DNA of 64,000 nucleotides from Candidatus Multivorans sp. GTDB lineage: Bacteria; Acidobacteriota; Thermoanaerobaculia; Multivoradales; Multivoraceae. Positions within the stretch are counted from its first letter, which is position 1; every line of letters begins with the position of its first letter. Under the pieces are notes generated by a model. That model worked only from the letters and a program-made list of their open reading frames with translations. It made no database searches and was not told the DNA's origin. The translations under genes were made by a program, and so were the position numbers. Below are positions 3,947-51,163 of the stretch, one piece after another. The DNA lies in contig OZ245033.1 of NCBI GenBank assembly GCA_965224025.1, positions 3,040,001 through 3,104,000 on the forward strand, read 5' to 3'.

Positions 3947-4600
3947 ATCCTGAACCCCGCTGTGTCAATGTCGTTGACAGGTTCCGAACCTCACACGGCT
4001 GGAGCTCTCCGAGAACGCGATCACGGATATCACGCCGCTCTCAGGTTTGACAAAGCTCATAACGCTGAGTCTCGCCCACAACGGGATCACGAGTGGCACC
4101 CCTCTCTCGGGCCTCACGGTCCTCAGACGGCTGGATCTCTCCTGGAACTGCCTCGCGAACATCGAAGCATTGACGAGCAACACAGGACTAGGCTCCGGTG
4201 ACTACATCTCACTCGATTGGAATGCCCTGGACGCAGACACGCTCGCTGACGACGTGACGGCGCTGCGGGACCGGGGACCGTGGTGATCTCGGAGACGCCT
4301 TCGGTGGAAGTCGGCGCGCCGCGCAACCTGAGCGCGACCCCGGGTGACCGCGAGCTCACGTTGACCTGGGCCGCCCCGTTAGACCCGGTCGACGTGCCCG
4401 TGTACCAGGTGCGCTGGCGTTCGGCTACCGGGTCGTTCAACGACTGGACGCTCGTTCCGTGCTCATCAAAGCGTCGGCACAAGCTGACCGGTCTGGTCAA
4501 CGGCACGACCTACACGGTGGAACTGCGAGGCGCGGGACATGTCGACAACGGGGTCGCGACGGCAAGCGCCACGCCTCAGCAGTAGTGGTGGCGCTAGCCT

Positions 4601-9301: not shown

Positions 9302-10351
9302 ATGAGTCAAAGCGGGAACGCGTTGAAAGCGGTTCAACTGGGTCGGAAGAGCGGACTCCGAGTGTCGGAGTTGTGCCTGGGGACCATGAACTTCGGCGAG
9401 CCGGGCCGGGGTCACCAGGGCGACTGGACCCTGGACATGGATGCGTCGCGCCCGATCTTCCAGGCCGCGGTCGAGCATGGCCTGTTCTACTTCGATTGCG
9501 CCGACATCTATGGCATCGGCGCCTGCGAGCGGGTCGTCGGTTCGCTCCTGCGGGAACTGCTTCCGCGGGACGAGTACGTCCTCTCGACCAAGGTCTCCAT
9601 GCCGATGGGCAGATCGCCGAACCAGGGCGGACTGTCGCGAAAGCACATCATGGAGGGGGTCGACGGCTGCCTGAAGCGGCTCGGCCTCGACTACGTCGAC
9701 CAGTTGATCATCCACCGCCACCCGCACGGCATTCCCGGCCAGGTCAGGGCGCCGATCGAGGAGACGATGGAGGCTCTGCACGACGTCGTCAAGGCCGGCA
9801 AGGCGCTGTACCTGGGCGGCTCGTCGATGTACGCGTGGCAGTTCGTGGAGCTCCAGATGACGGCGCGGCACAACGGCTGGACCGAGTTCGTCTCGATGCA
9901 GAACCACTACAACCTGGTGTACCGGGAGGAAGAGCGGGAGATGAACCCCTACTGCGCCCGGACGGGCGTTGCGCTGACGCCGTGGTCGCCGCTGGCGCGC
10001 GGCATCCTCACGGGCTCCTACAGGGGCAGCTTCGATGAGGGGGGCACCGACCGCTCGAAGGGCGGCGACCGGGCGCGCACGGAGGGCCTGTACAGGGGCG
10101 CCGCGACCTTCGATATCGCCGACCGCGTGGTCGAGGTGGCGAAGAAGTACGGCCGCACGCCGGCGCAGATTTCGCTTGCCTGGCTGGTGAACAAACCCGA
10201 GGTCTGCGCACCGGTCGTGGGCGTGTCGAAGGTGGGTCAGCTCGAGCAGCTTGTCCAGGCGACGAAGATCGAGCTGGAAGCGGCCGATGTCGAGTACATG
10301 GAGGAGCTGTACCAGCCGGTGGAGAACCTGCTGGCGCTTGGGCATTCCTGA
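9302..10351 (+). CDS. Aldo/keto reductase (YajO/Tas-like)
   Basis: GLRVSELCLGTMNFG, FDCADIYG, LKRLGLDYVD, MQNHYNL and PWSPLARG motifs. Confidence 0.95.
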   Translation: MSQSGNALKAVQLGRKSGLRVSELCLGTMNFGEPGRGHQGDWTLDMDASRPIFQAAVEHGLFYFDCADIYGIGACERVVGSLLRELLPRDEYVLSTKVSMPMGRSPNQGGLSRKHIMEGVDGCLKRLGLDYVDQLIIHRHPHGIPGQVRAPIEETMEALHDVVKAGKALYLGGSSMYAWQFVELQMTARHNGWTEFVSMQNHYNLVYREEEREMNPYCARTGVALTPWSPLARGILTGSYRGSFDEGGTDRSKGGDRARTEGLYRGAATFDIADRVVEVAKKYGRTPAQISLAWLVNKPEVCAPVVGVSKVGQLEQLVQATKIELEAADVEYMEELYQPVENLLALGHS

Positions 10352-13712: not shown

Positions 13713-14860
13713 ATGACTCGCGTACCGGTAGCCGCGGAGATGCTCCGCTGGGCCTGCGAGCGCTCCGGTCGCGGCATGGCGGACCTCGCCGCCCGTGTTC
13801 CTCAGCTTCCGGCCTGGGTTCGAGGCGAGAGACAGCCGACGCTCAAGCAGTTGGAGAAGCTTGCCACGGCTACGCGGACGCCGTTCGGCTATCTGTTCCT
13901 GGCCGCGCCGCCGGAGGAGCGTCTTCGGTTCCCGACTTTCGCACCGTGTGGGGTGCTTCCCGGGCGAGACCGAGCCCCGACCTGCTGGACACGCTGTACA
14001 GCATGCAACGTCGCCAGGAGTGGCTCCGGGAGTGCTTGATTGAGAGCGACGTGGAACCGCTGTCGTTCGCTGGAAGCGCCCGCCTGACGGATGACCCGGC
14101 CTCCGTGGGTCGGGAGATGCGTCGAGCACTCGGCCTCGATGGCGGTTGGGCCGCGGGAGTGAGCACCTGGCGGGACGCCGTGAGCGAGCTTCGCCGGGCC
14201 ATCGAGCAAGTCGGCGTGATGGCGGTGATCAACGGAGTAGTCGGGAACAACACGAGCCGGAAGCTGAGCGTGGAGGAGTTCCGCGGCTTCGCGCTCACGG
14301 ATCCCTATGCGCCGTTGATCTTCGTGAACGGCGCTGACGCCAAGTCGGCGCAGATGTTCACCCTCGCCCACGAACTGGCCCACATCTGGCTTGGCACGGC
14401 GGGCGTCTCCGGCTTCGAGTCTTTGTTCCCTGGCGGCTCGGACGTGGAGGACTGGTGCAACGCGGCCGCGGCTGAACTCCTCGTCCCTTCGGAGGAACTT
14501 GCATCGCGTTGGCACGAGGTGAAGAGGGGTCCAAGGCCGTTCGAGACGCTCGCCCGGGCGTTCAAGGTGAGTCCGGTCGTTGCCGCCCGCCGAGCCCTGG
14601 ACCTGAGTTTTGTCGGCCGCGACGCCTTTCACGACTTCTACAGGGAGTACGTCAGACACGATCTCGCGGGTGGCGCGAGTTCCACCGGGGGCAACTTCTA
14701 CAACAACCAGAACACTCGTGTCGGCGAGCTGTTCGCGTCCCATGTGCTCCGTGCGGCGATGGAGGGCCGCATCGGATTCAAGCAAGCCTACGACCTGACT
14801 GGCATGCGTGGAGGAACCTTCCAGAAGTACGCGAGGCGACTAGGAGTGAATCTCCCATGA
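13713..14860 (+). pseudogene. XRE-HTH + ImmA/IrrE (M78) metallopeptidase, frameshifted near 13928
   Basis: N-terminal HTH (PTLKQLEKLA..PFGYLFL) and FTLAHELAH are in different frames; a 1-nt deletion breaks ERLPVPDFRT. Confidence 0.85.
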
Positions 14861-15380
14861 CGAACGGCACGACCTACCTCGTGGACTCGGATGTGTTCAT
14901 CACGGCGAAGAACCTCTACTACGCGTTCGGCCTTTGCCCCGGGTCTGGAAGAGCGTTCTGCACCACCACCGGAAGGGCCGGATCTTCAGCGTCGACAGGG
15001 TTCGCAGCGAACTCCTCGCGGGCAGCGAGACAGAGGATCTCGTGCGGTGGGTCAAGGGAGAAGTTCCACGGGAGTTCTTCCTCCCGGTGGATGCCGATGC
15101 TGTCGTGAGTGCCTACACCGAGATCATGATGTGGGTACAGCGCCACGGGAGGTACTTCGACCACGCCAAGGCGAAGTTCGCCACGGGCGCGGACGGCTGG
15201 TTGGTCGCCTGTGCATGGGTTCAGGGCGCCGCCGTGGTCACGAACGAACGGGAGGCGCCGGAGTCCCGGAGGGAGATCAAACTGCCCGACGTGTGCGAGG
15301 AGTTCGGTGTGGAGCACCCCAACGTCTTCGAGATGCTTAGGGCGCTGGACGTCCAGTTCGACTGGGCGGAGGACCGTTGA
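14857..15380 (+). pseudogene. DUF4411-family PIN-like protein, frameshifted near 14944
   Basis: YLVDSDVFITAKN.YY..CPG[F]W, ADGWLVA, VVTNE and IKLPDVC; ATGA overlap with the ImmA gene. Confidence 0.85.
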
Positions 15381-15402
15381 GCGACCCTAGAAGGTCTGCG
15401 AG

Positions 15403-16035
15403 CTACCGGATCTCGACGTAGCGCGCGAGCCGCTCGACCTCGTCGTCGTCGACGTACTTGACAATCTCGCGGCGGAACCGGGCCATCGCCTCGTAGGGCC
15501 GATACTCCTCGAACTCGTGCCGCATCCGGCGGCCCACGCCGGGGATGCTCAGGATGTCCTCGCCCGAGGCGGTGTTCAGGTCGATGCGGACGTACACGTA
15601 CTGAGCGAGTCTCTCGACCTCGTCGTGGTCGACGTACTTGCCGATCTCCCGGTGGAACTGGGCCAGCGCGGTGTAGGGGCGGTACTCCTCGAACTCATGG
15701 GTCATCCGCCGGCCGACGCCCGGGATGAGGCCGATTTCCTCGGAGGTCGCGTTGGTCAGGTCGATGGGGACCCAGATCGCGCCGTAGATTGAGTCGAACC
15801 CGTCCTCGGCGACGTGTTTGGAGATCACGGCGTGGAGGTCCGCGGCGCGCAGGAAGGGACGGCCGTCGAATAGAGCCTTGACCGCGTCACCGTCGAGGCC
15901 GCTGATTGCCGCGAGTTCCTCCTCGCTGGCGAGGTTCGGGTTCAGCAGGCCGTTGTTGGCGCCGACCTGTGCGGCGGCGGGGATGGCGAAGATCAACAGG
16001 ACCGTCGTGATCCACATTAGGGCCGAGCGTTTCAT
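15403..16035 (-). CDS. Secreted helix-hairpin-helix (ComEA-like) protein with an internal duplication
   Basis: Signal peptide; NLASEEEL; two copies of IDL(T/N).A..E.I..IPGVGRRM.HEFEEYRPY. Confidence 0.85.
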   Translation of the reverse strand: MKRSALMWITTVLLIFAIPAAAQVGANNGLLNPNLASEEELAAISGLDGDAVKALFDGRPFLRAADLHAVISKHVAEDGFDSIYGAIWVPIDLTNATSEEIGLIPGVGRRMTHEFEEYRPYTALAQFHREIGKYVDHDEVERLAQYVYVRIDLNTASGEDILSIPGVGRRMRHEFEEYRPYEAMARFRREIVKYVDDDEVERLARYVEIR

Positions 16036-16065
16036 GTCGAGATGCGTCCTCGTGTGGCTAGTGGG

Positions 16066-16542
16066 TTAGTTGTGCGGGGCGGCAGGGTCCGCCGCGTCGC
16101 CGTCAGGTGACGTGGCGGCGGAGCCACCGCCGGCCGCGGGGTGCTGGAGGGCGATCAGTATACCCAGCATGCCGAGGAGGATCATTGCCCCCGGAGCCAG
16201 GGTCGGCATGGCGCCTCCGAGACTCTCCGTGACGAGTTCGAATCCGCTGGAGTTCGGGTGGAGCTCACGCTCGAACTCGACATTCGACTGCTAGTGGAAG
16301 TAGACGTCCAGCAGGCCCGCCGGCACGTGCGCCGCCAGCAGGATTCTGAATGCTTGAATAGACCCTCGGGAAGGACGCACCGCCAGCCACACACCGGACA
16401 GAGTTCCACTCACCAGAAGCACCAGAGGGATCCACTGCCTCCAATCCACGCAATGGTCCAGCAGATACAGCTCCGCCAGTAGACCCACCGCCCCGAAGAG
16501 CAGGATGTACAGCAGGTACCGCCGCCAGGCCTCGATCATCAC
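16066..16542 (-). pseudogene. 4-TM membrane protein with a premature TAG at 16291-16293
   Basis: ELYLLDH..QWIP..VYFH*QSNVEFERE..GAMPTLAPGAM continues in frame to TAA at 16066. Confidence 0.7.
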
Positions 16543-16622
16543 GGAGTTCCGAATCGCCCCCTCACGACGACCCTACCCCCATACGAGGGGGCCGCACGCA
16601 GCCGACCGACGACCTCCAGCCT

Positions 16623-16718
16623 GCGGAGGGGTTCAGGGGGACGGGTCCCAGGTGGCTCGGAGCGAGCGACGCCCGACGCCTTGCAAGCGGCCGACGCCCA
16701 TCCCGAGCGAGCGGAGTG
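16623..16718 (+). repeat. One half of a ~160-bp palindromic repeat (MITE/REP-like)
   Basis: 16623-16654 is the reverse complement of 22732-22763 (31/32 match); the interior aligns to the reverse complement of 35135-35210. Confidence 0.85.
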
Positions 16719-16726
16719 CAGTTAGG

Positions 16727-16873
16727 TGCTCCGATGAGGGCATCGAGCGTGAGCTGGCGGAACGGGCCCTGGCCCACGCGGTCGGGAGCCAGGTCGAGCA
16801 GTGCTACGCCCGTAGCGACGTGCTGGAGCGCCGCCGAGAGGTCATGGAGGCCTGGGGCGCGTTCCTGGTCGAG
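16727..16873 (+). pseudogene. Tyrosine integrase (P4-like) C-terminal remnant, copy 1
   Basis: CSDEGIERELAERALAHAVGSQVEQCYARSDVLERRREVMEAWGAFL contains the box III LAH and the catalytic Tyr. Confidence 0.85.
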
Positions 16874-17060
16874 TCGGTGCTAGCGGCGGTGGCGGAAGTC
16901 GGATGTCTCGTCCGCCGGGTGTCCGACTCGAAAGGTACCAAGACCCCACAGTGCTACGCGCGCTTCGCCCGCTCCGCCCGTGGAGCTAGCGAGGGAGGGC
17001 CTGCGGCCCCCCTTCGAACCCCCCCGGCGCGTTCTGTTGCCGCGAGTGAGAATCGACGCG

Positions 17061-17240
17061 ACCATGCACGCGTTCCGCAGTTCGTTCCGGTCCTCGTGTT
17101 CCCGCCGAGGGGATTGACCGGGAGCTGGCGGAGCAGGCCCTGGCTCACGCGGTCGGGAGCCAGGTCGAGCAGTGCTATGCCCGCAGCGACGTGCTAGACA
17201 GTCGCCGGGAGATCATCGAGTCCGGCGCGTTCCTGGTCAG
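17061..17240 (+). pseudogene. Tyrosine integrase C-terminal remnant, copy 2
   Basis: TMHAFRSSFR (HxxR)..IDRELAEQALAHAVGSQVEQCYARSDVL, with indels. Confidence 0.85.
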
Positions 17241-17300
17241 ATTCGGTCGCCGACAGGGCACGGAACCGGCTTTCCCGGTCGGCGCCACTGAGTCGGCCCA

Positions 17301-18044
17301 CTATGACTTCCGCGCTGGCATCTGACTCTCCTCCAGCCGGAGCTCGGTAGCGACGGGCGGCTGAGTAGTGCTGAGAATCACGACGCGGTTCCAGGGAGCT
17401 CTCACCAGAATCTGACGCCGCACTTCGTCCGCTTCGTGGGAGTCCATTGGTGCGTGACCAATGTGGTCTACGAGTACGAGCCACAGTTGTTCATACTTGC
17501 CGCCCATCGCCCCGAGCTTCTTGGTCTTGCTGGCTACCGTCATGGGGATTCTCGAGAGGTACTCACGAACCGGGTACCTTCCCTCTCCCGAGTTGACGGT
17601 ACCTACTCTGTACTGAGGCTCGCTGCTGGAACGGCAGGCGGGCACCAAATCGAGACTGACCCCGCAAGGGAGGCAGATCCTCCCGGGATCCCAAAGGGCC
17701 TTCCGCGCCTGTTGCGTCACAGTGCGCCTGCTCGGAAGCTCCTTCTTCATGTCGTACTTAGCGACGGCGCTGTAGGACGGATGCCAGCGCGGAGGTTTGA
17801 TCTCCTCAAAGAGGACCTCCAGCGTTCTCCTCAGGGCCTGTTTCCGGCGACGGCCGTCGTCGTCATCCTCCTGTGTGTGCAGGCGGGTCACTTCGACACC
17901 GTACTTGCCGTCAACCAAGAAGTCAGGTGGATCGTCACAGATCTTCTTGACGGTGTGGCCCAGGTCTTCAAGCCACTGGCGTGCTTGTTTCTCGTCTAAG
18001 TTCTCAGATCGACAGGGGTTGTCGGTGACAGAATTGTGGCACAT
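17301..18044 (-). CDS. Hypothetical protein with a possible PD-(D/E)XK nuclease fold
   Basis: AAGGGAGG RBS; E..A..L..G..V....DPPDFLVDGKYGVEVT motif. Confidence 0.55.
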   Translation of the reverse strand: MCHNSVTDNPCRSENLDEKQARQWLEDLGHTVKKICDDPPDFLVDGKYGVEVTRLHTQEDDDDGRRRKQALRRTLEVLFEEIKPPRWHPSYSAVAKYDMKKELPSRRTVTQQARKALWDPGRICLPCGVSLDLVPACRSSSEPQYRVGTVNSGEGRYPVREYLSRIPMTVASKTKKLGAMGGKYEQLWLVLVDHIGHAPMDSHEADEVRRQILVRAPWNRVVILSTTQPPVATELRLEESQMPARKS

Positions 18045-18128
18045 TGGGGCCTCCCTTAGGGTTGCCGTGGTTCGTAGAGGTGTTGCCGAAGGCTGTGGGT
18101 CGACGAGGATTCTTGCGCGGTTCGGCAG

Positions 18129-18153
18129 GCAACGCATCGGTTCGATGCGTTGC
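18129..18153. terminator. Perfect 11-bp hairpin at the end of the TonB-domain gene
   Basis: gcaacgcatcg-gtt-cgatgcgttgc; no strong U tract. Confidence 0.45.
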
Positions 18154-19109
18154 TAGAATCCGTAGGACACCCTTACGTCTGTGTGAGTCCTGATCGGTTG
18201 GCCGTTTGCCGTAGCAGGTCGGTACTTCCACTTCCTGACTGTCGCCACAGCCATAGCAGTGGTTTGCTCTTCAGCAGAGCGTCGTCGTTCAGCATAGCCG
18301 CGACGCTCCTTCGCATACGCTCGACCGATGTAGGCTTCTCTCGTTACCTCGACATCCACAACCTCTCCACTCTCGGAGATTGTGAGACGAAGGTCCAGCC
18401 AGCCTCGAACACGGGCTCTTCGGGCTTCCTTCGAGAACGGCGGATCGGCGCCACTGATCTTCTCGGGCGGCACCATGATTGGGTCGGCTTTCGCGATCTC
18501 GGGTTCCACCCGAGGGCAGGCGGGGCCGTTGAGGAACGCCTCGACGACCTCTCGCTCGGGTTCGCCGAACGGCAGCCGCCAGACCGCCGTTGAGTTGTCG
18601 GAGTGACGGGCCTCGAACGCGAGTGTGGTGCCGGCCCACGCGGCCGACTCCTGCACGAACAGAGTGTGCGGCGGGTCGGTGGCGTTCTGCACCTGTCCGT
18701 TCAGGATCACCCTCGTTGGGCGCAGCGGTTCGCCGGACACCGGGATGCCGTTCGAGTTGACCCGACCTCGATCCGTGACGACCTGCACCACACCGTCGCA
18801 GTACACGAGAAGCATGGCTGTGTAGAACCCCGGCGTACTCGCGCTCGCTTCCGAGTACATGGGGGATCGGAGGTGACACGAACCCATCTGCCCCGTCAAG
18901 TCGTCGTGGTCGCAGATCTCACTCCACGACGAAACTTCGCGCACCGTCGGGTGGTTCTTCTCGTCCTCCCGAAGCGCGGCTTTCATGACCGGGTGGTCGT
19001 AAGTGAGCTGGCTGACTGGCAGTTCTGCTGACCGGCGCGACTCCGCTTCCTGCCCTTCAGACGCCGAAGCAGCTAGTAGCGCGAGGGGCAGAACCGCGAC
19101 TGCGGCCAT
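18153..19109 (-). CDS. Secreted protein with a C-terminal TonB domain
   Basis: Signal peptide; PPEKISGADPPF..ARRARVRG....LTISESGEV..AVRKWKYRPAT.NGQPI. Confidence 0.75.
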   Translation of the reverse strand: MAAVAVLPLALLAASASEGQEAESRRSAELPVSQLTYDHPVMKAALREDEKNHPTVREVSSWSEICDHDDLTGQMGSCHLRSPMYSEASASTPGFYTAMLLVYCDGVVQVVTDRGRVNSNGIPVSGEPLRPTRVILNGQVQNATDPPHTLFVQESAAWAGTTLAFEARHSDNSTAVWRLPFGEPEREVVEAFLNGPACPRVEPEIAKADPIMVPPEKISGADPPFSKEARRARVRGWLDLRLTISESGEVVDVEVTREAYIGRAYAKERRGYAERRRSAEEQTTAMAVATVRKWKYRPATANGQPIRTHTDVRVSYGF

Positions 19110-19690
19110 CGTTCTGGCCGTCCGCTCAGCTACGGAGAATCCCCTGACGGCGAGGGGCCGAGCGGCCTCATCTCGGCAACGAGTAACCCTTGTTGGGGGG
19201 TACCGTTCCGGTCCTCCGCCATACGGAGAGCGCTGCATCTGAGCCTCCTATACCCAGAAGGCAGAATAGCAGCCCCGCATTCCGCCCGATAGCCGGCGGG
19301 CACCGCCCAGGCCATGAATGGAGGCTCCTCGGCGCTGTTTGCCGACACGCCGACTGGTGCCGGGCCGTGTAACGCACCGTGCGCACAGGTAACTGATCCC
19401 GCTTATTCGCCGCGCTTGAGCACGGAACCCACGACCCCGACGCGAGCCCGTTCACCGACTGTTGTATTCCACAGGCGACCCGACGTGGGGAACCTGCACA
19501 CACTTGCGTTACCGCACCAGCGTAGCGGACGTGGGAGACGCCCTGGCGACTCAGCTGTCAATGGCAACTGAAACCGGTCACGGCCTGGGCGCGCTCCGCG
19601 TCCAGTAGTCGCCGGCGCAGAACTCGTGCACGGCCCTGGCGGCGCTCAGTGGCGCGTCTGGCCTCCGAGCCTTCCCGCAGGGATCAACTC

Positions 19691-19818
19691 TGACGTGAGC
19701 GACCCCAGGCCCGCGGTAAACGCCGCGGTAAACGAGGAGTAGGCCGCAGGGCCGCATCAGGCGGTGAAACAGGGGGGGCGCTCACGTCACGACCCGGCCG
19801 CTTGGAGCGGTCGGGTCG
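19691..19818. other. Double-hairpin structured non-coding segment with a tandem 12-mer
   Basis: tgacgtgagcg (19691) pairs with cgctcacgtca (19779); ccgcggtaaacg x2 lies inside; second stem cgacccggccgct/agcggtcgggtcg. Confidence 0.5.
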
Positions 19819-20113
19819 CCAGCCCGCTGCGGTGCCGGTGCAGAAAGGCTTCCGAGAAAACGACAGGCAGTGCAACGACATTCTCGGAGTGTCCTCGAAA
19901 GCGGACAAGTAAACGAGGACGGCGGAACAGCTAGACGAGGGGGATGCTGACCTTTTTCACTCCTGGAGCGGATCCTGGTCCGACTCCGTTAGGCGGTCAG
20001 GGATCGGGGCGTGGGGCTGCGGAGAGTCGAGGTCTGGTGTTCCCCAGCATTGGTCTGGCGAAAACGATCGCCGCAACTGCCGAGTCGGCCGGCCTCTACC
20101 AGACCTTGAGGTT

Positions 20114-20890
20114 CTAAGGCACATCGAGCAGAGCGCGCCAAGCGTCCGACGCGGTGTAGTAGCGAATCATGGCGTCTTCCGCCGCGAGTTCGGCCGTCTC
20201 TTCCGCTGCAGCGGCTCGCGTAAGGGCTGGAGCGGCGAACTCGGCCACTGCCGCGCGTTGAACACGCCGGAGTTCGTTGAGCGCGCGCCCGCTCGCACGG
20301 CTACTCTCTGCAAACCGTTCATAAAGCTCCGGGCGTGGTGTTTCGCCGGGGCTCAAAGCATGTCTCGACCATGCCGCCTCGGCGCGGTCTCTCGCTTCGC
20401 CGGTGCGAATCACTTCCGCCAAGGCGGAGGTCGATGCGGCGGTGATTGCCTCAGCGGCAGGACCTTGACTCACTTCGCCGCGACTCCGGGTAGCCAGCGC
20501 CGCTGCCGCTTCGGCCGAGACGGCCTTAGCAGTGTCTCGGGCCTCAAGGGCGGCTGCCAGCGCGTCGCCGAGCTGTTCGGCGTACTCGGCCGCTTCAAGA
20601 CTCCGGTCGAAGGCCGCAGCGGTTGCCTCGGGTGCTGTGTCACGCGCGTCGCGGGCCGCTTCCAGAGCCTCGCGCGTAGCAACTCGGAATCTGTCCCGGA
20701 CGCCGGCAGCGTCGGGATCATCGACGGCTCGTAGATCGTCGATTGCGTCGCCAGCAGCGGCAGCGGTGAGTGCAGCCAACCGGACCGCGGCAGGGTCTGG
20801 CTCTGTAGGCGCACACGCCACGGCCAGAACCGCGACGAGGGCACCAGCGAAGCCCTGCTCGAAGACTCCAGTTCTGTGCTTCGATTTCAC
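20114..20890 (-). CDS. Hypothetical Ala-rich helical lipoprotein
   Basis: Lipobox-like LVAVLAVAC; long Ala-rich ORF; start uncertain. Confidence 0.6.
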   Translation of the reverse strand: MKSKHRTGVFEQGFAGALVAVLAVACAPTEPDPAAVRLAALTAAAAGDAIDDLRAVDDPDAAGVRDRFRVATREALEAARDARDTAPEATAAAFDRSLEAAEYAEQLGDALAAALEARDTAKAVSAEAAAALATRSRGEVSQGPAAEAITAASTSALAEVIRTGEARDRAEAAWSRHALSPGETPRPELYERFAESSRASGRALNELRRVQRAAVAEFAAPALTRAAAAEETAELAAEDAMIRYYTASDAWRALLDVP

Positions 20891-20990
20891 GCTCGAAACC
20901 CTAGTCTGCCAGTGACCCCGGGGGAGGATGATACCTTTGCTCACAGTTGGCACTGCAGGACAATCGGGACACCAAACCGCCTTCCCTTTG

Positions 20991-21059
20991 GTGCTACGCA
21001 CACGGCGAGGTTGCTGGAGCGCCGGCGGAACGTCATGGAGGCCTTGGGCGCGTTCCTAG
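20991..21059 (+). pseudogene. Tyrosine integrase C-terminal remnant, copy 3 (interrupted by IS630)
   Basis: gtgctacgc..ctggagcgccggcggaacgtcatggaggccttgggcgcgttcctag; homology resumes as gtcgag after the IS. Confidence 0.8.
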
Positions 21060-22195
21060 TGTAGCGTCTCCGACATGGGTTGACAGTTTCGGTTAAGTTC
21101 GTCAGTATTCCGTTCATGTGGGAACCAGCGGAACGACTTGACATCGAAGAGAGCGATCGAGCGCTTCTCAAGAAATGGGTAGAGGCGCCGACGACGCCAC
21201 AACGCACGGTCCGGCGTAGCCGGATCGTGCTCGCTGCGGCGGAGGGCACGGCCAATCGGGCGATCGCGGCGAAACTCGGAGTTTCGCGGCCCACGGTGCT
21301 GCTGTGGCGTCGTCGGTTCGCGGAGGACGGGCCTTCGGGGCTGACCAGGGATCGTCCCCGCGGTTGCGGAAAGCCGCCGCTCTCGGAGTCGGTCGTGCGT
21401 AAAGTGATCGAAGCGACGCTGCACGAGAAGCCGCCCGGTCAGACCCACTGGAGCGTGCGTTCGATGGCTCGGGCCCAGGGCATCAGTCCGGCGGCGGTCC
21501 AGCGCATCTGGGCGGCGCACGGGCTGAAGCCCCATCTGGTCAGGACGTTCAAGCTGAGTAACGACCCCAGGTTCGTGGAAAAGCTGCGGGACGTTGTGGG
21601 CCTGTACCGGAATCCGCCCGAGAATGCGCTTGTGCCGTGCGTGGACGAGAAGAGCCAGATCCAGGCTCTGGACCGGACCCAGCCAGGTTTGCCGCTCAAG
21701 CGCGGCCGCGCGGGAACGATGACCCACGACTACAAGCGCAACGGGACGACGACGTTGTTCGCTGCGCTGAACGTGTTGGAGGGCACGGTGATCGCGGAGT
21801 GCATGGGCCGGCAGCGCCACCAGGAGTTTCTCCGTTTCCTCAAGCGTCTCGACCGTGAGATCCCAAAGCACCTCGACCTGCACCTGATCCTGGACAACTA
21901 CCAGACCCACAAACACGCCGCCGTGCGCGCATGGCTGGAGCGAAAGCCTCGCTTCCACTTCCATTTCATTCCCACTTAGTCGCCCTGGCTTAACCTGGTC
22001 GAACGCTGGCTGGGCGGTCTGACCACGAAGGCGATCCGGCGCGGTGCATTCCAGAGCGTCAACGACCTCGTAAAGACCATCTACGACTATGTGGACCACA
22101 GCAACGAAAACTCCCGGCCGTTCGTCTGGACGGCCACCGCCGACAGCATCGTCGCAAAGGTTACACGTGGTAAAGCCATGTTGGAGACACTACAC
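21059..22195 (+). mobile_element. IS630-family insertion sequence
   Basis: IRs gtgtagcgtctccgacat / atgttggagacactacac; CTAG target with TA duplication (21057-58, 22196-97). Confidence 0.95.
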
Positions 22196-22198
22196 TAG
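21116..22198 (+). pseudogene. IS630 transposase with an in-frame TAG at 21977-21979
   Basis: VDEKSQIQAL, THDYKRNGT and ILDNY motifs; FIPT*SPWLNLVER continues in frame. Confidence 0.9.
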
Positions 22199-22279
22199 TC
22201 GAGCCAGACCACCGGTGGTACGCCAGCGTGCAGACGAGGGGCCGGAGGGCCGTGAAGACGTACTCTCTGGGGGAAGTAG

Positions 22280-22471
22280 ATGAAGAGCAAGGGCCACAGA
22301 ACGAAACCATGGCACTTGTCGTCTACACAGACGGTGTACCACTACTGGAGCACCTGCCCTCTCGCGCATGAGAGATACGAGGAGAACGCGCAGAGCGGCA
22401 AGGGCGCCGGTCGCCGTCCGTGCGGCCACTGCCAGAACCACGAACGCGCCTGGGCGGTAACCAGACGGTAG
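22280..22471 (+). CDS. Small Cys/His protein, possibly metal-binding
   Basis: GGGGAAG RBS; VYH...C and G.G.RPCGHC pattern. Confidence 0.55.
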   Translation: MKSKGHRTKPWHLSSTQTVYHYWSTCPLAHERYEENAQSGKGAGRRPCGHCQNHERAWAVTRR

Positions 22472-22689
22472 AGTTTGAAGGGCTGCCTGAAGCGGACGGC
22501 GAGACTCTAACGGGCGCTCTCTAACTCTAAGTCTAAGAAGGCAGCAGAGTCTAGGCAGGAGTCGAGGCCCGCCGTCGGTCGCTGGTGTCCGGGTGGGGAC
22601 GAAGGGGACCGTATGGGGACAGTCCCCGACGAGCGTTCGCCTCAAGTATCTGCGTCTACTGCTACTTGGCCCGATTCAGAGCGGGAAGC

Positions 22690-22763
22690 AGTGAGCGCAC
22701 CCCCTTTCATTCTCCGACCAAGCGCGAACGGCACCTGGGACCCGTCCCCCTGAACTCCTCCGC
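22690..22763 (+). repeat. Other half of the palindromic repeat
   Basis: Reverse complement cccaggtgccgttcgcgcttggtcggagaatg..gcgctcac aligns with 35089-35137. Confidence 0.85.
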
Positions 22764-22785
22764 GGGCGGGTGAGTGCAACTCGGC

Positions 22786-24963
22786 TCAGGGCGCCTCGCC
22801 GGCCGCCGCCGCGGCCTGCTCGTCGGCGAGCATGTTGCGACGGTGCAGCACGTAGGACTTGAGGAGGGCGACGTCGTCGCGGTCGAGGACGGGCGCGAAG
22901 CTCGGCATGCCGAGGTCGACGAGGGCGCCTTCGAGCAAGACTGCCTCGTAGGAGTCGAAGACGCGCTGGGAGGACTGCCGCAGGTCGGGCGTGACGCCGC
23001 CGGAGACGGCGCCGTAGCCGTGGCAGACGAGGCAGTACTGGTTGAACAGCCGGCGGCCGGCGTCGATGTCCGCGGCCGAAGCGCCGTGGTCGGCGCGGGT
23101 GACGCGGATCTCGCGGCGCTCCCGCCGCTCGATCGGCCGGCCGGTGGCGCCGAGGGCGTAGACGACGATCCGGCCTTCGGAGTCGACCGCCTGTCGGGCT
23201 GAGCGGCTGCCGACGATGCCGAAGGCGCCGCCCCAGCCGGACATCACGGCGATGTACTGCGTGCCGCCGCTCTCGAAGGTGATCGGCGGCGCGATGACGC
23301 CGCTGCCGGTGTAGCTCTCCCAGAGCTTCTCGCCGTCGTCGGCCCGGTACGCGGTCAGGAGGCCGAAGGGGGTGCCCTGGAAGACGAGGTTGCCGGCCGT
23401 GGCGAGCGTGCCGCCGGACCAGGGCATCGTGTACTGCGCCCGCCAGACCTCGCGCTGGGCGACCGGGTCCCACGCCAGCAGGTGACCGGAGAGCAGAGCC
23501 GGCGGCGCGTCCTCGGCAAGCATCTGGCCGGAGAGGCCGGTGGCGTCGATCACCGCCTGAGGAATGTCCTCGGGTGCGGCCGGCCGCACGCCCAGGTTCC
23601 ACTGGCCCGGCGTGTACTTGAAGTTCAGGGCCGGCACGTAGAAGTTCGACATCTCCATCGCCGGGATGTACACGAGTCCGGTGTCCGGGCTGAACGCCAT
23701 CGGGTGCCAGTTGTGCCCGCCGAGCGGCCCGGGCGAGACGGCGACTGCCTGGTCGGTGTAGCGCGCTCCGGCGAGCTCGACCGGCCGCCCGGACGCGAGA
23801 TCGACGTGGCTGGCCCAGGTCACGGTGACGAACTCCTCGGCCGAGATCAGCTCGCCGGTGCGGCGATCGAGGACGTAGAAGAACCCGTTCTTGGGCGCCT
23901 GCATGAGGACGTGGCGCACCCGGCCGCCGATCGGCAGCTCGGCGAGCATGATCGGCTGGGTGGCGGTGTAGTCCCAGGTGTCGCCGGGAGTCGTCTGGTA
24001 GTGCCAGACGTACTCGCCGGTGTCGGGACGGAGCGCCACGATCGAAGACAGGAACAGGTTGTCGCCGCCGCCGGGGCTGCGGAGGTTGCGGTCCCAGGGC
24101 GCGCCGTTGCCGACGCCGATGTAGAGCAGGTCGAGTTCCGGATCGTAGACGATCGAGTCCCACACGGTGCCGCCGCCGCCGCCGGTCCACCACTCGCCGG
24201 TCCAGGTCTCGGCGGCCATCCGCATCGCCTCGTCCTCGAAGCCGTCCGCCGGGTTGCCCGGCACCGTGTAGAAGCGCCAGGCGCGCTCGCCGGTTTCCGC
24301 GTCGTAGGCGTCGACGTAGCCGCGCACGCCGTACTCGGCGCCGCTGTTGCCGATGATCACCTTGCCCTTCGCGATCCGGGGGGCGCCGGTGATCGTGTAC
24401 ATCGAGTCCTCGGGCACTGTCATCGTCGACCAGGCGAGTTCGCCTGTCTCGGCGTCGATGGCGATCAGGCGTCCGTCGAGGGTGGCGGAGATCACCTTCC
24501 CGCGGTAGAGCGCGGCGCCGCGGTTGACCGCGTCGCAGCAGGTCTTCATCGCGATGGAGCGCGGCACCTCCGGGTCATGGGTCCACAGCGGTTCGCCGGT
24601 GACCGCGTCCAGGGCGTAGATCACGTTCCAGGCGCCGGTCGCGTACATCACGCCGTCGACGATCAGCGGCGTGCCCTCGAGGCCGCGCTTCGTGTTCGTC
24701 TCCATGACCCAGGAGATGCCGAGCTCAGCTACGTTGCCGTCGTTGATCTGGTCGAGCGGGCTGTAGCGCTGCTCCTTGTAGGTGCCGCCATAGGTCAGCC
24801 AGTCGGCGGTACGGCCCGCGGCGCCGACCAGGGCGGCGTCGTCGACCGCGTAGGCGGCCTCCGCGCGACGCGGCGGCGGCTGAGACATCGCCGAGCCGGT
24901 GAGAAGGAGCGCCGCGGTCCCGGCGGCGAAGGTTCGGACGGAACGAGTGAACAAGTGGCTCAT
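22786..24963 (-). CDS. Quinohemoprotein (type II) PQQ alcohol dehydrogenase with C-terminal cytochrome c
   Basis: YSPLDQIN, CCDAVNRG, GAEYGVRGY, WDYTATQ, APKNGFFY, GGHNW and CLVCH. Confidence 0.95.
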   Translation of the reverse strand: MSHLFTRSVRTFAAGTAALLLTGSAMSQPPPRRAEAAYAVDDAALVGAAGRTADWLTYGGTYKEQRYSPLDQINDGNVAELGISWVMETNTKRGLEGTPLIVDGVMYATGAWNVIYALDAVTGEPLWTHDPEVPRSIAMKTCCDAVNRGAALYRGKVISATLDGRLIAIDAETGELAWSTMTVPEDSMYTITGAPRIAKGKVIIGNSGAEYGVRGYVDAYDAETGERAWRFYTVPGNPADGFEDEAMRMAAETWTGEWWTGGGGGTVWDSIVYDPELDLLYIGVGNGAPWDRNLRSPGGGDNLFLSSIVALRPDTGEYVWHYQTTPGDTWDYTATQPIMLAELPIGGRVRHVLMQAPKNGFFYVLDRRTGELISAEEFVTVTWASHVDLASGRPVELAGARYTDQAVAVSPGPLGGHNWHPMAFSPDTGLVYIPAMEMSNFYVPALNFKYTPGQWNLGVRPAAPEDIPQAVIDATGLSGQMLAEDAPPALLSGHLLAWDPVAQREVWRAQYTMPWSGGTLATAGNLVFQGTPFGLLTAYRADDGEKLWESYTGSGVIAPPITFESGGTQYIAVMSGWGGAFGIVGSRSARQAVDSEGRIVVYALGATGRPIERRERREIRVTRADHGASAADIDAGRRLFNQYCLVCHGYGAVSGGVTPDLRQSSQRVFDSYEAVLLEGALVDLGMPSFAPVLDRDDVALLKSYVLHRRNMLADEQAAAAAGEAP

Positions 24964-25049
24964 GGCAAGAGTTCTCCTACGAGGCGTGGGGCCTCGACCT
25001 GAGAGCGCGGGCATCTATGCCCGCATCCGGATCCTCGGTACGGCTGAGG

Positions 25050-35038: not shown

Positions 35039-35069
35039 CGCTGGAGCGGCGGACGCACCCGCCCGTCTT

Positions 35070-35230
35070 GGGGCAGGAGGGGTCGGCTCCCAGGTGACGT
35101 TCGCGCTTGAGAGGAGATGGGAGGGGATGGCGCTCACTCCGCCTCACCCGCTCCGGTTTGGCGTCGGTAAGTGCGGTGTCGTCGGGCGTCGCTCGTTCAG
35201 AGGCACCTGGGAGCCGACCCCTCCTGCCCC
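35070..35230. repeat. Intact 161-bp palindromic element with 27-bp perfect terminal inverted repeats
   Basis: ggggcaggaggggtcggctcccaggtg (35070-35096) pairs with 35204-35230; lies between convergent genes. Confidence 0.9.
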
Positions 35231-35368
35231 GACTGGGCTGGATGTCGGTGCCGAGCGGGCTGGAGCACAAGGCGAGGCCCCGACCTGTCTGAGGGTGCGC
35301 GGGCCTTGCGGCCCGCATTAGGGCGATGCCTTGAAGGGGCGAGCGCGCGACGCGATCGGCGAAGTCAG

Positions 35369-37760: not shown

Positions 37761-37987
37761 GTGCGAAGCGACCAGGTCGGCCGCCGGATGCTCGGTGCGT
37801 GCCCGCTCGGCCGGCCGACCCGGGTGGCGCGAGCCGCGCCACCCGTGAACCAGTCCGTGCGCCCGTCATCGGGCGCACGGATGGAACCTGCCAACGCTAG
37901 CAGCATGCAACCTTCCGGACCACGCCCGCGCATTGCAGCATCCCGGTCGGGTATCGTCGCGCGAACCAGACCGAAGGAGAAAGCGAG

Positions 37988-50556: not shown

Positions 50557-50943
50557 ATGCGGTCCTCAAAGCGTCGCTCGAGCCCCGGGTTCCTGCCCCT
50601 GCTTCTGGGCCTCGTAATGCTCGTCTTCGCATTGCTGCAGCTCAACGACCCGGACCCCCTCATCTGGGTGAGCTACTACGCGGCAATCGCCTGCGCCTGT
50701 ACGGTCGCCGCCTACCGGCCGCTGCCCACGGCCGCGTTCCTGGGCTTGGCCGCGGTGACCGCGGCCGGCGCGGTGCTCACCCTGCCGGGCTTTACCGACT
50801 GGGTGCTGAACCGCCCGACGAGCGATCTCTGGGCGCCGATGTCGGCCGACCGGATGTACATCGAGCACAGCCGGGAGCTGCTGGGACTCGTGATTGCCGG
50901 CACCTGTCTGGTAACCGCACAGTGGCTGTCGCGGAGGCGGTAG
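50557..50943 (+). CDS. TMEM220-family membrane protein
   Basis: QLNDPDP.IW..YY and IE..RE..GL.I. Confidence 0.85.
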   Translation: MRSSKRRSSPGFLPLLLGLVMLVFALLQLNDPDPLIWVSYYAAIACACTVAAYRPLPTAAFLGLAAVTAAGAVLTLPGFTDWVLNRPTSDLWAPMSADRMYIEHSRELLGLVIAGTCLVTAQWLSRRR

Positions 50944-51088
50944 CGTCGCCGCTTCGCGGCGCGTTTCTCCCCCCGGGTCAGAAGACCCGGGGTCACGGGC
51001 ACCTGCCTGGTAACCGCGCACTGGCTGTCGCGGAGGCGGTAACGTCGCCGCTTCGCGGCGCGTTGTTTTCCGCGGGTCAGAACCCGGG
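50899..51088 (+). repeat. Imperfect tandem duplication, period 99 bp
   Basis: ggcacctg(t/c)ctggtaaccgc..gtcgcggaggcggta(g/a)cgtcgccgcttcgcggcgcg..gggtcagaa at 50899 and 50998. Confidence 0.9.
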
Positions 51089-51163
51089 TGGCGCGATCCG
51101 CGCCACCAGTCCGTGCGCCTTTCATCGGGCGCGCGGATGGCAGACCCGCGGCTACACCCGCGG

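Follow-up and report, generated by a model that had tools for sequence, protein, structure and literature searches.

Islands that integrate with a tyrosine integrase are textbook elements, and to our knowledge their targets are almost always single-copy genes. Genomic islands of the P4 / CP4-57 type and satellite prophages integrate into tRNA or tmRNA genes. ICEclc uses several equivalent attB sites in tRNA-Gly genes, and the CIMEs of Streptococcus are integrase-less cis-mobilisable elements that undergo accretion and retain their att sites. The Neisseria filamentous prophage Nf1/MDA carries a recombinase of the Piv/IS110 type and not a P4-type tyrosine integrase. It is described as integrating into dRS3, a 20-bp repeat present in 200-700 copies per genome, and with such a multi-copy attachment site the integration locus varies between strains (PMC7058167). 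REP/BIME palindromes are described as targets of IS elements of 1-2 kb with IS3- or IS110-family transposases (Tobes and Pareja, 2006; PMC1525189). Our literature searches turned up no tyrosine-integrase island with a dispersed palindromic repeat as its target.

We analyzed a stretch of 64,000 nucleotides (the window), in which a palindromic repeat is split by an accessory region. Taking all evidence together, we assign a probability of roughly 0.88 to the explanation that an integrative island, now decayed, occupies this region, and that the P4-type tyrosine integrase of its family targets a fixed core, ..G(A/G/C)AGTGAG.., which lies within the conserved inner part of a palindromic repeat of ~200 nt; the figure applies to this explanation as a whole. 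The insertion spot is fixed, and because a genome has dozens of such repeats, the repeat family acts as a multi-copy landing pad. One of the two readings offered by the original prediction, a multi-copy attB for a tyrosine-recombinase element, is thus borne out by empty alleles in the congeners G016 and G010, by attL and attR junctions at a fixed position and by intact islands. Features of the locus are collected in Table 1.

Table 1. Features of the split repeat, the island and its surroundings in the window.
Feature	Position	Strand	Basis or remark
Left chromosomal flank, 83-aa ORF	16291..16542	-	Abuts right-flank gene in 7 congeners
Left half of split repeat, B arm of attL	16603..16722	+	nhmmer profile positions 2-98; includes GCAGT 16718-16722
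Integrase 3' remnant 1, codons ~328-378	16725..16881	+	Translation; tblastn against congener full-length integrase
Integrase 3' remnant 2, from codon ~309, frameshifted	17026..17247	+	Repeat comparison, translation
Island ORF, 278 aa	17301..18137	-	No family match
Cargo gene, 361 aa, TonB C-terminal domain	18153..19238	-	Pfam PF03544, E 1.1e-9; NCBIfam
Non-coding or unknown island segments	19660..20003	+	Also in own genome at 1576-1577 kb and in G014, G004, G045, G048
Integrase 3' remnant 3, last ~20 codons	20991..21060	+	Cut by IS insertion
IS630-family insertion sequence	21054..22198	+	Pfam DDE_3 and HTH domains; CTAG at both flanks
Island-borne right arm, P arm of attR	22604..22687	+	Kept in related islands of other genomes
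Core at attR, GCAGTGA	22688..22694	+	attL counterpart GCAGTTA 16718-16724
Right half of split repeat, B' arm of attR	22695..22772	+	nhmmer profile 82-157 at 22679-22754; collinear with G016 copy
Right chromosomal flank, PQQ-dependent dehydrogenase with cytochrome c domain	22786..25014	-	Pfam; synteny
Intact family member	35046..35254	-	Paralogous copy, not empty allele (35070-35230 in the original prediction)

The target is what separates this locus from the described systems. P4 / CP4-57 islands use a single-copy RNA gene, whereas here the target is a non-coding palindromic repeat with 32 full-length copies. As reported for the IS elements of REP/BIME sequences, a dispersed extragenic palindrome is struck at a specific position, giving nested repeats; in contrast to those elements as they are described, the insertions here are islands of 4.6-14 kb with a tyrosine integrase, arm sites and a duplicated core. 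A multi-copy repeat as attachment site is shared with the published outline of Nf1/MDA, but a ~200-nt structured element takes the place of the 20-bp dRS3. Several alternative landing sites per genome, tandem arrays, and remnants that have att sites and no integrase are also known from ICEclc and the CIMEs, which differ in using a handful of sites in essential genes, whereas here dozens of sites belong to a repeat that is itself subject to gain and loss among congeners.

The repeat was searched with a profile of the element (nhmmer). The genome from which the window derives (5.14 Mb) contains 54 matches at E≤1e-3, 32 of them full-length and 22 partial, and the repeat is therefore not a chance occurrence. 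Across the genus, which belongs to the Thermoanaerobaculia (Acidobacteriota), 37-38 of 42 genomes gave matches, and copy numbers per genome run into the tens. The original prediction gave the element a length of 161-165 bp, which is too short: with its conserved flanks included it is a hairpin of ~200-210 nt. It folds into a ~45-bp stem (z about -5.9), and RNAalifold analysis of 22 copies yielded 39 pairs, 21 of which show double changes that preserve pairing. Being dispersed, intergenic and an imperfect palindrome with compensatory changes in its stem, it is a structured intergenic repeat of the REP/BIME or ERIC type; no Rfam family matches it. The copy number is MITE-like, and many copies have near-perfect arms. 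Short inverted GGCG/CGCC flank the 7-nt stretch GAGTGAG in the copy at 35070-35230. The integration site is located ~15 nt away from the geometric centre of the repeat, inside a sequence-conserved block. In six copies of the window's genome a 65-nt repeat is nested at a fixed position of the element, showing that the element attracts several kinds of insertion.

At the ends of the split copy, the predicted 32-bp inverted repeat is present, and 31 of the 32 positions of its arms (16623-16654 and 22732-22763) are complementary. As had been proposed, the halves are collinear with 35070-35230 read in reverse complement, and intact copies of the window's own subfamily match better still; the left half is also collinear with these and with the intact orthologous copy in G016. 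Details of the junctions had to be revised. The letters common to both are not AGTG but GCAGT (16718-16722 and 22688-22692): intact copies of the subfamily read ...GGAGTGCAGTGAGCGC..., and the two AGTGs noted earlier are thus adjacent, different tetramers. The core shared in the window comprises only 5 nt, and the 7-nt stretch is identical at 6/7 positions (GCAGTTA vs GCAGTGA); to the left of the core, both junctions show an imperfect similarity of ~26-30 nt. Integrase homology, which had been placed about 8 bp inside the junction, starts at 16725 (codon ~328), at most 2 nt past GCAGTTA. The left junction is an abnormal attL that lacks the 206-nt arm described below. This joint between left half and remnant is absent from all 30 relatives searched, and its history is inferred for that reason. 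Half-elements do to some extent occur alone, which the original prediction had named as a possible refutation, since nine of them in the same genome have no partner within 35-70 kb; the pairing in the window is nevertheless not coincidental, because the stems match at 31/32 positions and G016 has an intact orthologous copy.

The empty allele that had been asked for was found in G016, where a single unsplit element lies between the genes that also flank the window's island. Seven further congeners (five read base by base, two judged by coordinates) have neither repeat nor island at the orthologous site, so the repeat is or was mobile. A second split copy is present in the window's genome (C1 1304614-1304711 / 1315647-1315711, 11 kb apart, sharing GTGAGCG), and at its site G010 has an unsplit element and G008 no element. 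Public runs with this DNA consist of short contigs breaking in repeats, and their skips from 16678 to 22688 show no empty allele; the skips carry 37-40 other letters and thus stem from other family copies. Recombination, a circle or excision was not observed, and these contigs yielded no junction-spanning sequence. All relatives are metagenome-assembled genomes, and misjoins at repeats are therefore possible, although many of the assemblies are single-contig.

To compare junctions across the genus, right junctions from nine other genomes were aligned base by base. They have the same island arm of ~90-130 nt, different stems and at least eight distinct loci or outer flanks, and in 9/9 cases the arm meets the right half at the same column, confirming that splits share one position. 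An alignment of ten attR junctions showed that 54-63 of 86 columns of the right arm are identical to the window, with invariant blocks. In G017:C53 and G053:C160, near-identical island arms lie in different element copies with different stems. A census of 42 genomes for attR, defined as an island arm of at least 45 nt running into the right half, yielded at least 15 junctions in 11 other genomes among the 150 matches listed out of 184. The corresponding census for attL, defined as a left half running at least 36 nt into the left arm of the island, yielded at least 13 junctions in eight genomes among the 150 matches listed out of 388; one of the 13 is the query itself, and the remaining 137 of these 150 matches stop at the core. 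In other genomes there are five island arms that stop at the same nucleotide and adjoin something other than a normal right half, so that either targeting is not exclusive or later rearrangements are common.

These junctions bear on two readings that dispense with site-specific integration. If the halves were terminal inverted repeats of a large cargo transposon, the 161-200-nt elements would be internally deleted MITEs and the shared letters deletion microhomology. The complementarity at 31/32 positions would fit, as would the MITE-like copy number with near-perfect arms and the absence of the element from the orthologous site in seven congeners, but we regard this as very improbable: the element is unsplit at the orthologous site in G016 and, for the second island, in G010; island arms are conserved while stems vary between loci; arms of the same type occur in different element copies (G017 vs G053); some arms stand without any element half; intact islands have no recombinase at the junction other than a tyrosine integrase with an arm-binding domain; and the IS630-family copy inserted independently with its own ends. 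An assignment to MITE/TIR transposons with cargo was rejected on the grounds that G016 keeps the whole element without cargo and that arms pair with different stems. The same observations dispose of the other reading offered by the original prediction, that the arms are the ends of a cargo-carrying non-autonomous element. Breakage of a hairpin or cruciform near its centre, followed by capture of foreign DNA through end joining without a dedicated recombinase, has even less to recommend it. The fold into a ~45-bp stem would fit, and both split copies of the window's genome are broken in the interior; the break, however, falls at the same nucleotide in all nine aligned junctions with conserved arms on both sides, intact islands lie between short direct repeats of the core, and the site is off-centre in a conserved block.

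Two congeners, G045 and G048, contain intact islands of 14 kb. Their order is left half, core, 206-nt arm, integrase reading inward, cargo, ~130-nt arm, same core and right half, which is the attL - integrase - cargo - attR layout of P4 / CP4-57 islands. The 9-nt core GAAGTGAGC occurs exactly twice in 17 kb of G045 (positions 1312 and 15682), and the 8-nt core GGAGTGAG exactly twice in G048 (1705 and 15781), both cores sitting at the same position of the element. A full-length integrase of 377-378 aa begins 206 nt past the left core, and it is the only recombinase adjoining a junction. PF13356, PF22022 and PF00589 all score above the Pfam cut-off; these domains (Arm-DNA-bind_3, Phage_int_M and Phage_integrase) identify a P4-type tyrosine integrase, with the arm-binding N-terminus, central domain and catalytic domain known from P4 / CP4-57 islands. 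The right arm ends in ~30 nt resembling the element's own sequence left of the core. Such attP/attB homology is also seen in tRNA-targeting islands, and a short identical core combined with a longer, target-imitating stretch on one island arm is likewise found in P4 / CP4-57 islands. The integrase would catalyse the exchange, the crossover would lie within the shared 5-9 nt, and the elements would pass through a circle.

In the Myxococcus phage Mx8 the integrase gene contains attP. If this applied here, integration would split the gene and leave a 3' remnant at the left junction as a matter of course. Remnant 1 begins at most 2 nt past the 7-nt core stretch and reads inward, and the 5' ends of two remnants elsewhere (at 1577.9 kb of the same genome and in G004:C27) fall no more than ~12 nt from the same codon. 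We nevertheless consider this explanation very unlikely, because G045 and G048 carry the whole integrase gene inside attL with no 5' part at attR, no 5' part adjoins the window's right junction, and the 5' ends of the eight remnants examined are scattered over codons 285-361.

Islands of this family may also accumulate. G048 has two or three attL, and G004 has three attR plus four arms in an array; P4 / CP4-57 islands likewise undergo tandem accretion and decay into remnants without an integrase. The arm arrays in G004:C1 only look like cassettes, and an integron was rejected, the integrase lying within the mobile unit beside attL and not fixed with attI. As a tentative proposal, which we hold to be somewhat less probable than its opposite, a P4-type integrase clade may have exchanged single-copy tRNA genes as its target for a structured palindromic repeat with many copies, where the core lies on the 5' arm of a conserved internal hairpin, GAGTGAG between GGCG/CGCC being much like a tRNA stem-loop. 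Dozens of interchangeable sites might then permit hopping within a genome, multiple copies and cassette-like tandem arrays, a mode half-way between genomic island and transposon, and repeat and island may co-evolve in these symbiont genomes. A dispersed repeat as attB allows several simultaneous island copies, moves within one genome and tandem accretion, and it provides many homologous junctions inviting rearrangement. The structured repeat is exploited by at least two different kinds of mobile DNA, integrase islands and the nested 65-nt repeat. Split repeats are a simple comparative-genomics marker for islands in poorly known phyla, and a natural integrase for which each genome already offers tens of landing pads could be developed into a multi-copy insertion tool for these uncultured Acidobacteriota.

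The island in the window has a GC content of 58-66%, compared with ~70% outside, and GC3 of its ORFs is 0.53-0.79 vs 0.92-0.93 in the flanking genes. No tRNA gene was found in the window or at seven related loci. The P arm, TonB-like gene, non-coding segments and integrase remnants match islands of G048, G045, G004 and G002, and BLASTN gives 76% DNA identity between the TonB-domain gene and part of the intact island in G048. Remnant 1 is 90% identical in DNA to the 3' ends of full-length congener genes and retains the ALAH...Y-A-R-S-D end of the catalytic domain, its stop codon being mutated. Since the integrase is represented by three 3' remnants only, this copy is a decayed member of the P4-type islands. 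That another kind of element targeting the repeat made the insertion, with the integrase remnants as passengers, is extremely unlikely: the nested 65-nt repeat would be a precedent, but a Pfam domain search found no IS110-type gene in the island, and the junction position and both arms are those of integrase islands.

For the integrase island of the window, the comparisons suggest the following history. The element copy would have been present first, as it still is in G016, and the island would have integrated into it. About 1.2 kb, comprising the left arm and codons 1-327 of the integrase, was probably lost afterwards, bringing the core almost directly to codon 328. With these parts missing, the island is probably fixed in place and no longer mobile. 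The two further integrase 3' remnants are probably earlier tandem arrivals or products of internal rearrangements. The insertion of the IS630-family element would be the last step; it is a later, independent insertion with its own ends. Its transposase ORF (21080-21979, 299 aa) lies in the window, and five other full-length copies with at least 99.3% identity, in addition to partial ones, are present in the genome.

The 6-kb island of the window interrupts one copy of a dispersed palindromic repeat (the element). As the original prediction had claimed, the sequences on either side of the island are the two halves of a single element; their outer arms are complementary at 31 of 32 positions, and a repeat search of the window links the intact paralogous copy to both halves. 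A profile was built from full-length BLAST hits and used to search the 5.14-Mb genome holding the window (own genome), yielding 54 matches at E<=1e-3, 32 of them full length. The 22 partial matches comprise the two window halves, a second split pair, a copy on contig C2 that is deleted internally (two matches), six copies interrupted by a nested repeat at profile position 132, one near-full copy and nine lone halves. With the threshold relaxed, none of these nine lone halves proved to have a partner up to 35-70 kb away in the own genome. A lone left half (C1 2616550-2616475, minus strand) and a lone right half (2561165-2561113, minus strand) are 55 kb from each other, correctly ordered and oriented, and may represent a third, large split copy; an IS630 fragment is located near 2561.8 kb, close to this right half.

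With its conserved flanks counted, the element is ~200-210 nt long and has a long, rod-like fold (z -5.9). RNAalifold predicted 39 base pairs from 22 copies, and pair-keeping double changes were detected in 21 of them; the predicted pairs include an internal hairpin, on whose 5' arm the insertion site is located. In the window no Rfam family was found above threshold, the element being matched only weakly by plant miRNA hairpins, and tRNA genes were detected neither in the window nor in seven related loci. A 24-mer taken from the element is matched exactly in records of Thermoanaerobaculia, Candidatus Multivorans or Acidobacteria metagenome-assembled genomes.

The sequence just inside the right junction of the window (the right arm of the island) is conserved in three congener genomes (G002, G004 and G014), where it is joined, at the same nucleotide, to right halves whose stems, the outer arms of the element, are different. 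A search for attR in 42 genomes of the genus showed at least 15 junctions in at least 11 other genomes, matched over at least 45 nt from the arm into a right half, among the matches listed (150 of 184). Nine such junctions, from nine genomes, were aligned with the window, and the junction falls in the same column in 9/9; their differing stems and outer flanks indicate at least eight loci. Near-identical arms are also present in different element copies (G017:C53 compared with G053:C160). Five further right arms end at the same nucleotide and then continue into something other than a normal right half, in one case a right half carrying a nested small repeat. For attL the left junction of G048 was used as the query: at least 13 matches in at least eight genomes, query included, start in the left half and continue into the left arm among the matches listed (150 of 388), and the remaining 137 of those listed end at the core, the short stretch shared by both junctions. 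Matched left and right junctions in consistent order and orientation were found on one contig in G045 (14.4 kb apart), G048 (14.1 kb), G036:C3 (~7.8 kb) and G053:C162 (~4.6 kb). Four copies of the right arm lie within 16 kb in G004:C1 9438-24829 (L036/L037), with ends at 9511, 16057, 18296 and 24823, and one of them is fused directly to a 3' remnant of the integrase; this cluster is a cassette-like tandem array.

Intact islands were found in G045 and G048, where a left half is located 14 kb upstream of the family right junction. The order is left half, core, a 206-nt arm, a full-length integrase gene directed inward, cargo, right arm, the same core and right half. The cores, GAAGTGAGC in G045 and GGAGTGAG in G048, each occur exactly twice per 17-kb locus. 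Both integrases have 377-378 amino acids and contain the domains Arm-DNA-bind_3, Phage_int_M and Phage_integrase. The cargo consists mostly of unknown ORFs, together with an FG-GAP protein and IS21-type insertions; among 12 ORFs scanned in the G045 locus no phage or conjugation genes were recognised. An Mx8-like attP within the integrase gene is contradicted by these intact islands. A 23-nt perfect repeat in G004:C3 was discarded as a core, since a 270-nt stretch at 83% identity would by chance contain ~0.6 runs of that kind.

The junctions of this family are position-specific, the cores are duplicated, empty sites exist and a full integrase gene adjoins attL. On this sequence evidence, the exchange would be catalysed by the island integrase, with the crossover probably inside the 5-9 nt common to both junctions and a circular molecule as the likely intermediate. 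At its end the right arm imitates, over ~30 nt, the element sequence left of the core, and therefore the right junction retains an almost complete element interior after integration. Three right halves, that of the window and those at 1052202 and 1966253 of the own genome, start with GAGCGGGAAG and had been considered to be of a special "P-type" origin; this was dropped because their common ~30 nt are explained by the island arm imitating the element, and upstream homology among the three ends at that ~30 nt. A full-text search of literature outside subscription journals retrieved no case of a tyrosine-integrase island with a dispersed palindromic repeat for its attB, and an earlier description is possible. 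The nearest cases in that literature are IS elements targeting REPs (PMC1525189) and the Nf1 prophage integrating into dRS3 repeats (PMC7058167).

Thirty relatives were searched with window positions 14000-25000; all relatives compared are metagenome-assembled genomes, and the orthologous site was readable in G016 and seven congeners and not in the other ten congeners of the search. The flanking genes are adjacent in the seven congeners, and base-by-base reading of five of these showed neither element nor island. G016 contains one unsplit element between the same flanking genes, and therefore the element was there first and the 6 kb arrived later. In G052, which is close to G016 at this locus, another member of the island family sits in the same element copy, and the left flank is duplicated. 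Skips observed in short contigs from public runs proved to be other copies of the family and not an empty allele. An extra spacer of ~60 nt left of the element (16543-16602) is common to the window and G016 (L006) and absent from the seven "empty" congeners. Flank identity to the window is 79-90% for G016 and 82-93% for the element-free congeners, G016 being no closer; element presence does not track flank similarity.

The window island shares with related islands the right arm, a gene with a TonB-C domain, non-coding segments and integrase sequence. At its left junction the core letters GCAGT and two bases are followed by the integrase gene from codon ~328, and therefore ~1.2 kb (the left arm and 327 codons) is missing. 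This junction of left half and remnant was not found in any of the 30 relatives searched. A microhomology between TCCCATGAGGTC of the left arm and TCCGATGAGGGC of integrase codons 330-333 (10/12) was rejected as cause of the 1.2-kb deletion because the integrase homology of the window begins 5 nt further left (GGTGC). The two other window remnants are likewise 3' parts only, and the third was cut by an IS630-family element. The starts of eight integrase remnants from various loci fall anywhere from codon 285 to codon 361, with homology reaching exactly to the stop codon in every case, a pattern which we read as probable decay after tandem arrivals. Three of eight 5'-truncated remnants (window 16725, own C1 1577921 and G004:C27, L017 ~8125) begin no more than ~12 nt from codon 323-329; either common descent or a hot spot of recombination may account for this.

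The halves of the second split copy in the own genome (island 2) are 11 kb apart, and GTGAGCG is common to both junctions. The cargo comprises IS elements, a methylase and a large CarboxypepD_reg protein, and no integrase was found in the 11-kb insert; the left junction retains a shortened version of the left arm of the family. At the orthologous site, G010 carries an unsplit element and G008 carries no element. Within island 2 (C1 1304500-1315800, L001) an ISL3 transposase gene is split by a 2.86-kb unit encoding an IS1595-family transposase and an N6/N4 DNA methylase, of which three other 100%-identical genomic copies exist.

Table. Features of the window and of the own genome (window positions unless a contig is named)
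Feature	Position	Remark
Element, left half	16603-16722	
Element, right half	22695-22772	
Outer arms	16623-16654 / 22732-22763	
Intact paralogous element	35070-35230	
Integrase remnants	16725..16881; 17026-17247; 20991-21060	
TonB-C-domain gene	18153-19238	
Non-coding segments	19660-20003	
IS630-family element	21054-22198	five other full-length own-genome copies, >=99.3% identity
Right arm	~22604-22694	
Island 2, element halves	C1 1304614-1304711 (left); 1315647-1315711 (right)	
Small REP	37820-37884; 51084-51140	
Small REP nested in large element	C1 135082, 679579, 1556726, 1824385, 3845995, 4766798	

A second, small repeat of ~65 nt with two hairpins (small REP) gave 341 BLAST hits in the own genome, of which ~160 are near-full copies. 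Six copies of the large element carry it nested at profile position ~132, after ..GCGCGAAC; the fact that these six represent different subfamilies suggests that the insertion is target-specific. A second full-length P4-type integrase (own C1 1577757-1579347, L002; ~238050) is accompanied by an extra 3' remnant 25 nt past the stop, 87-90% like the first window remnant. The integrase-proximal end of this island, located at 1578 kb, adjoins a copy of the small REP with 4 mismatches, all of them in its last 10 nt. Boundaries for the island were rejected, relatives showing rearrangement instead: in G014 and G016 the flanks of C1 238019 and of 1579383 lie side by side, and a large rearrangement is present there in G000. 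From this adjacency and the abutting copy, the island therefore seems to sit within a small REP hairpin. Further repeats in the window are 66-nt periodic repeats (2000-2391 and 3998-4125), apparently coding and leucine-rich-repeat-like in appearance, a 99-nt tandem duplication with 85% identity (50885-51082) beside a small REP copy, and a 180-nt tandem duplication (15407-15766, 77%) within a ComEA-like helix-hairpin-helix gene (15403-16035).
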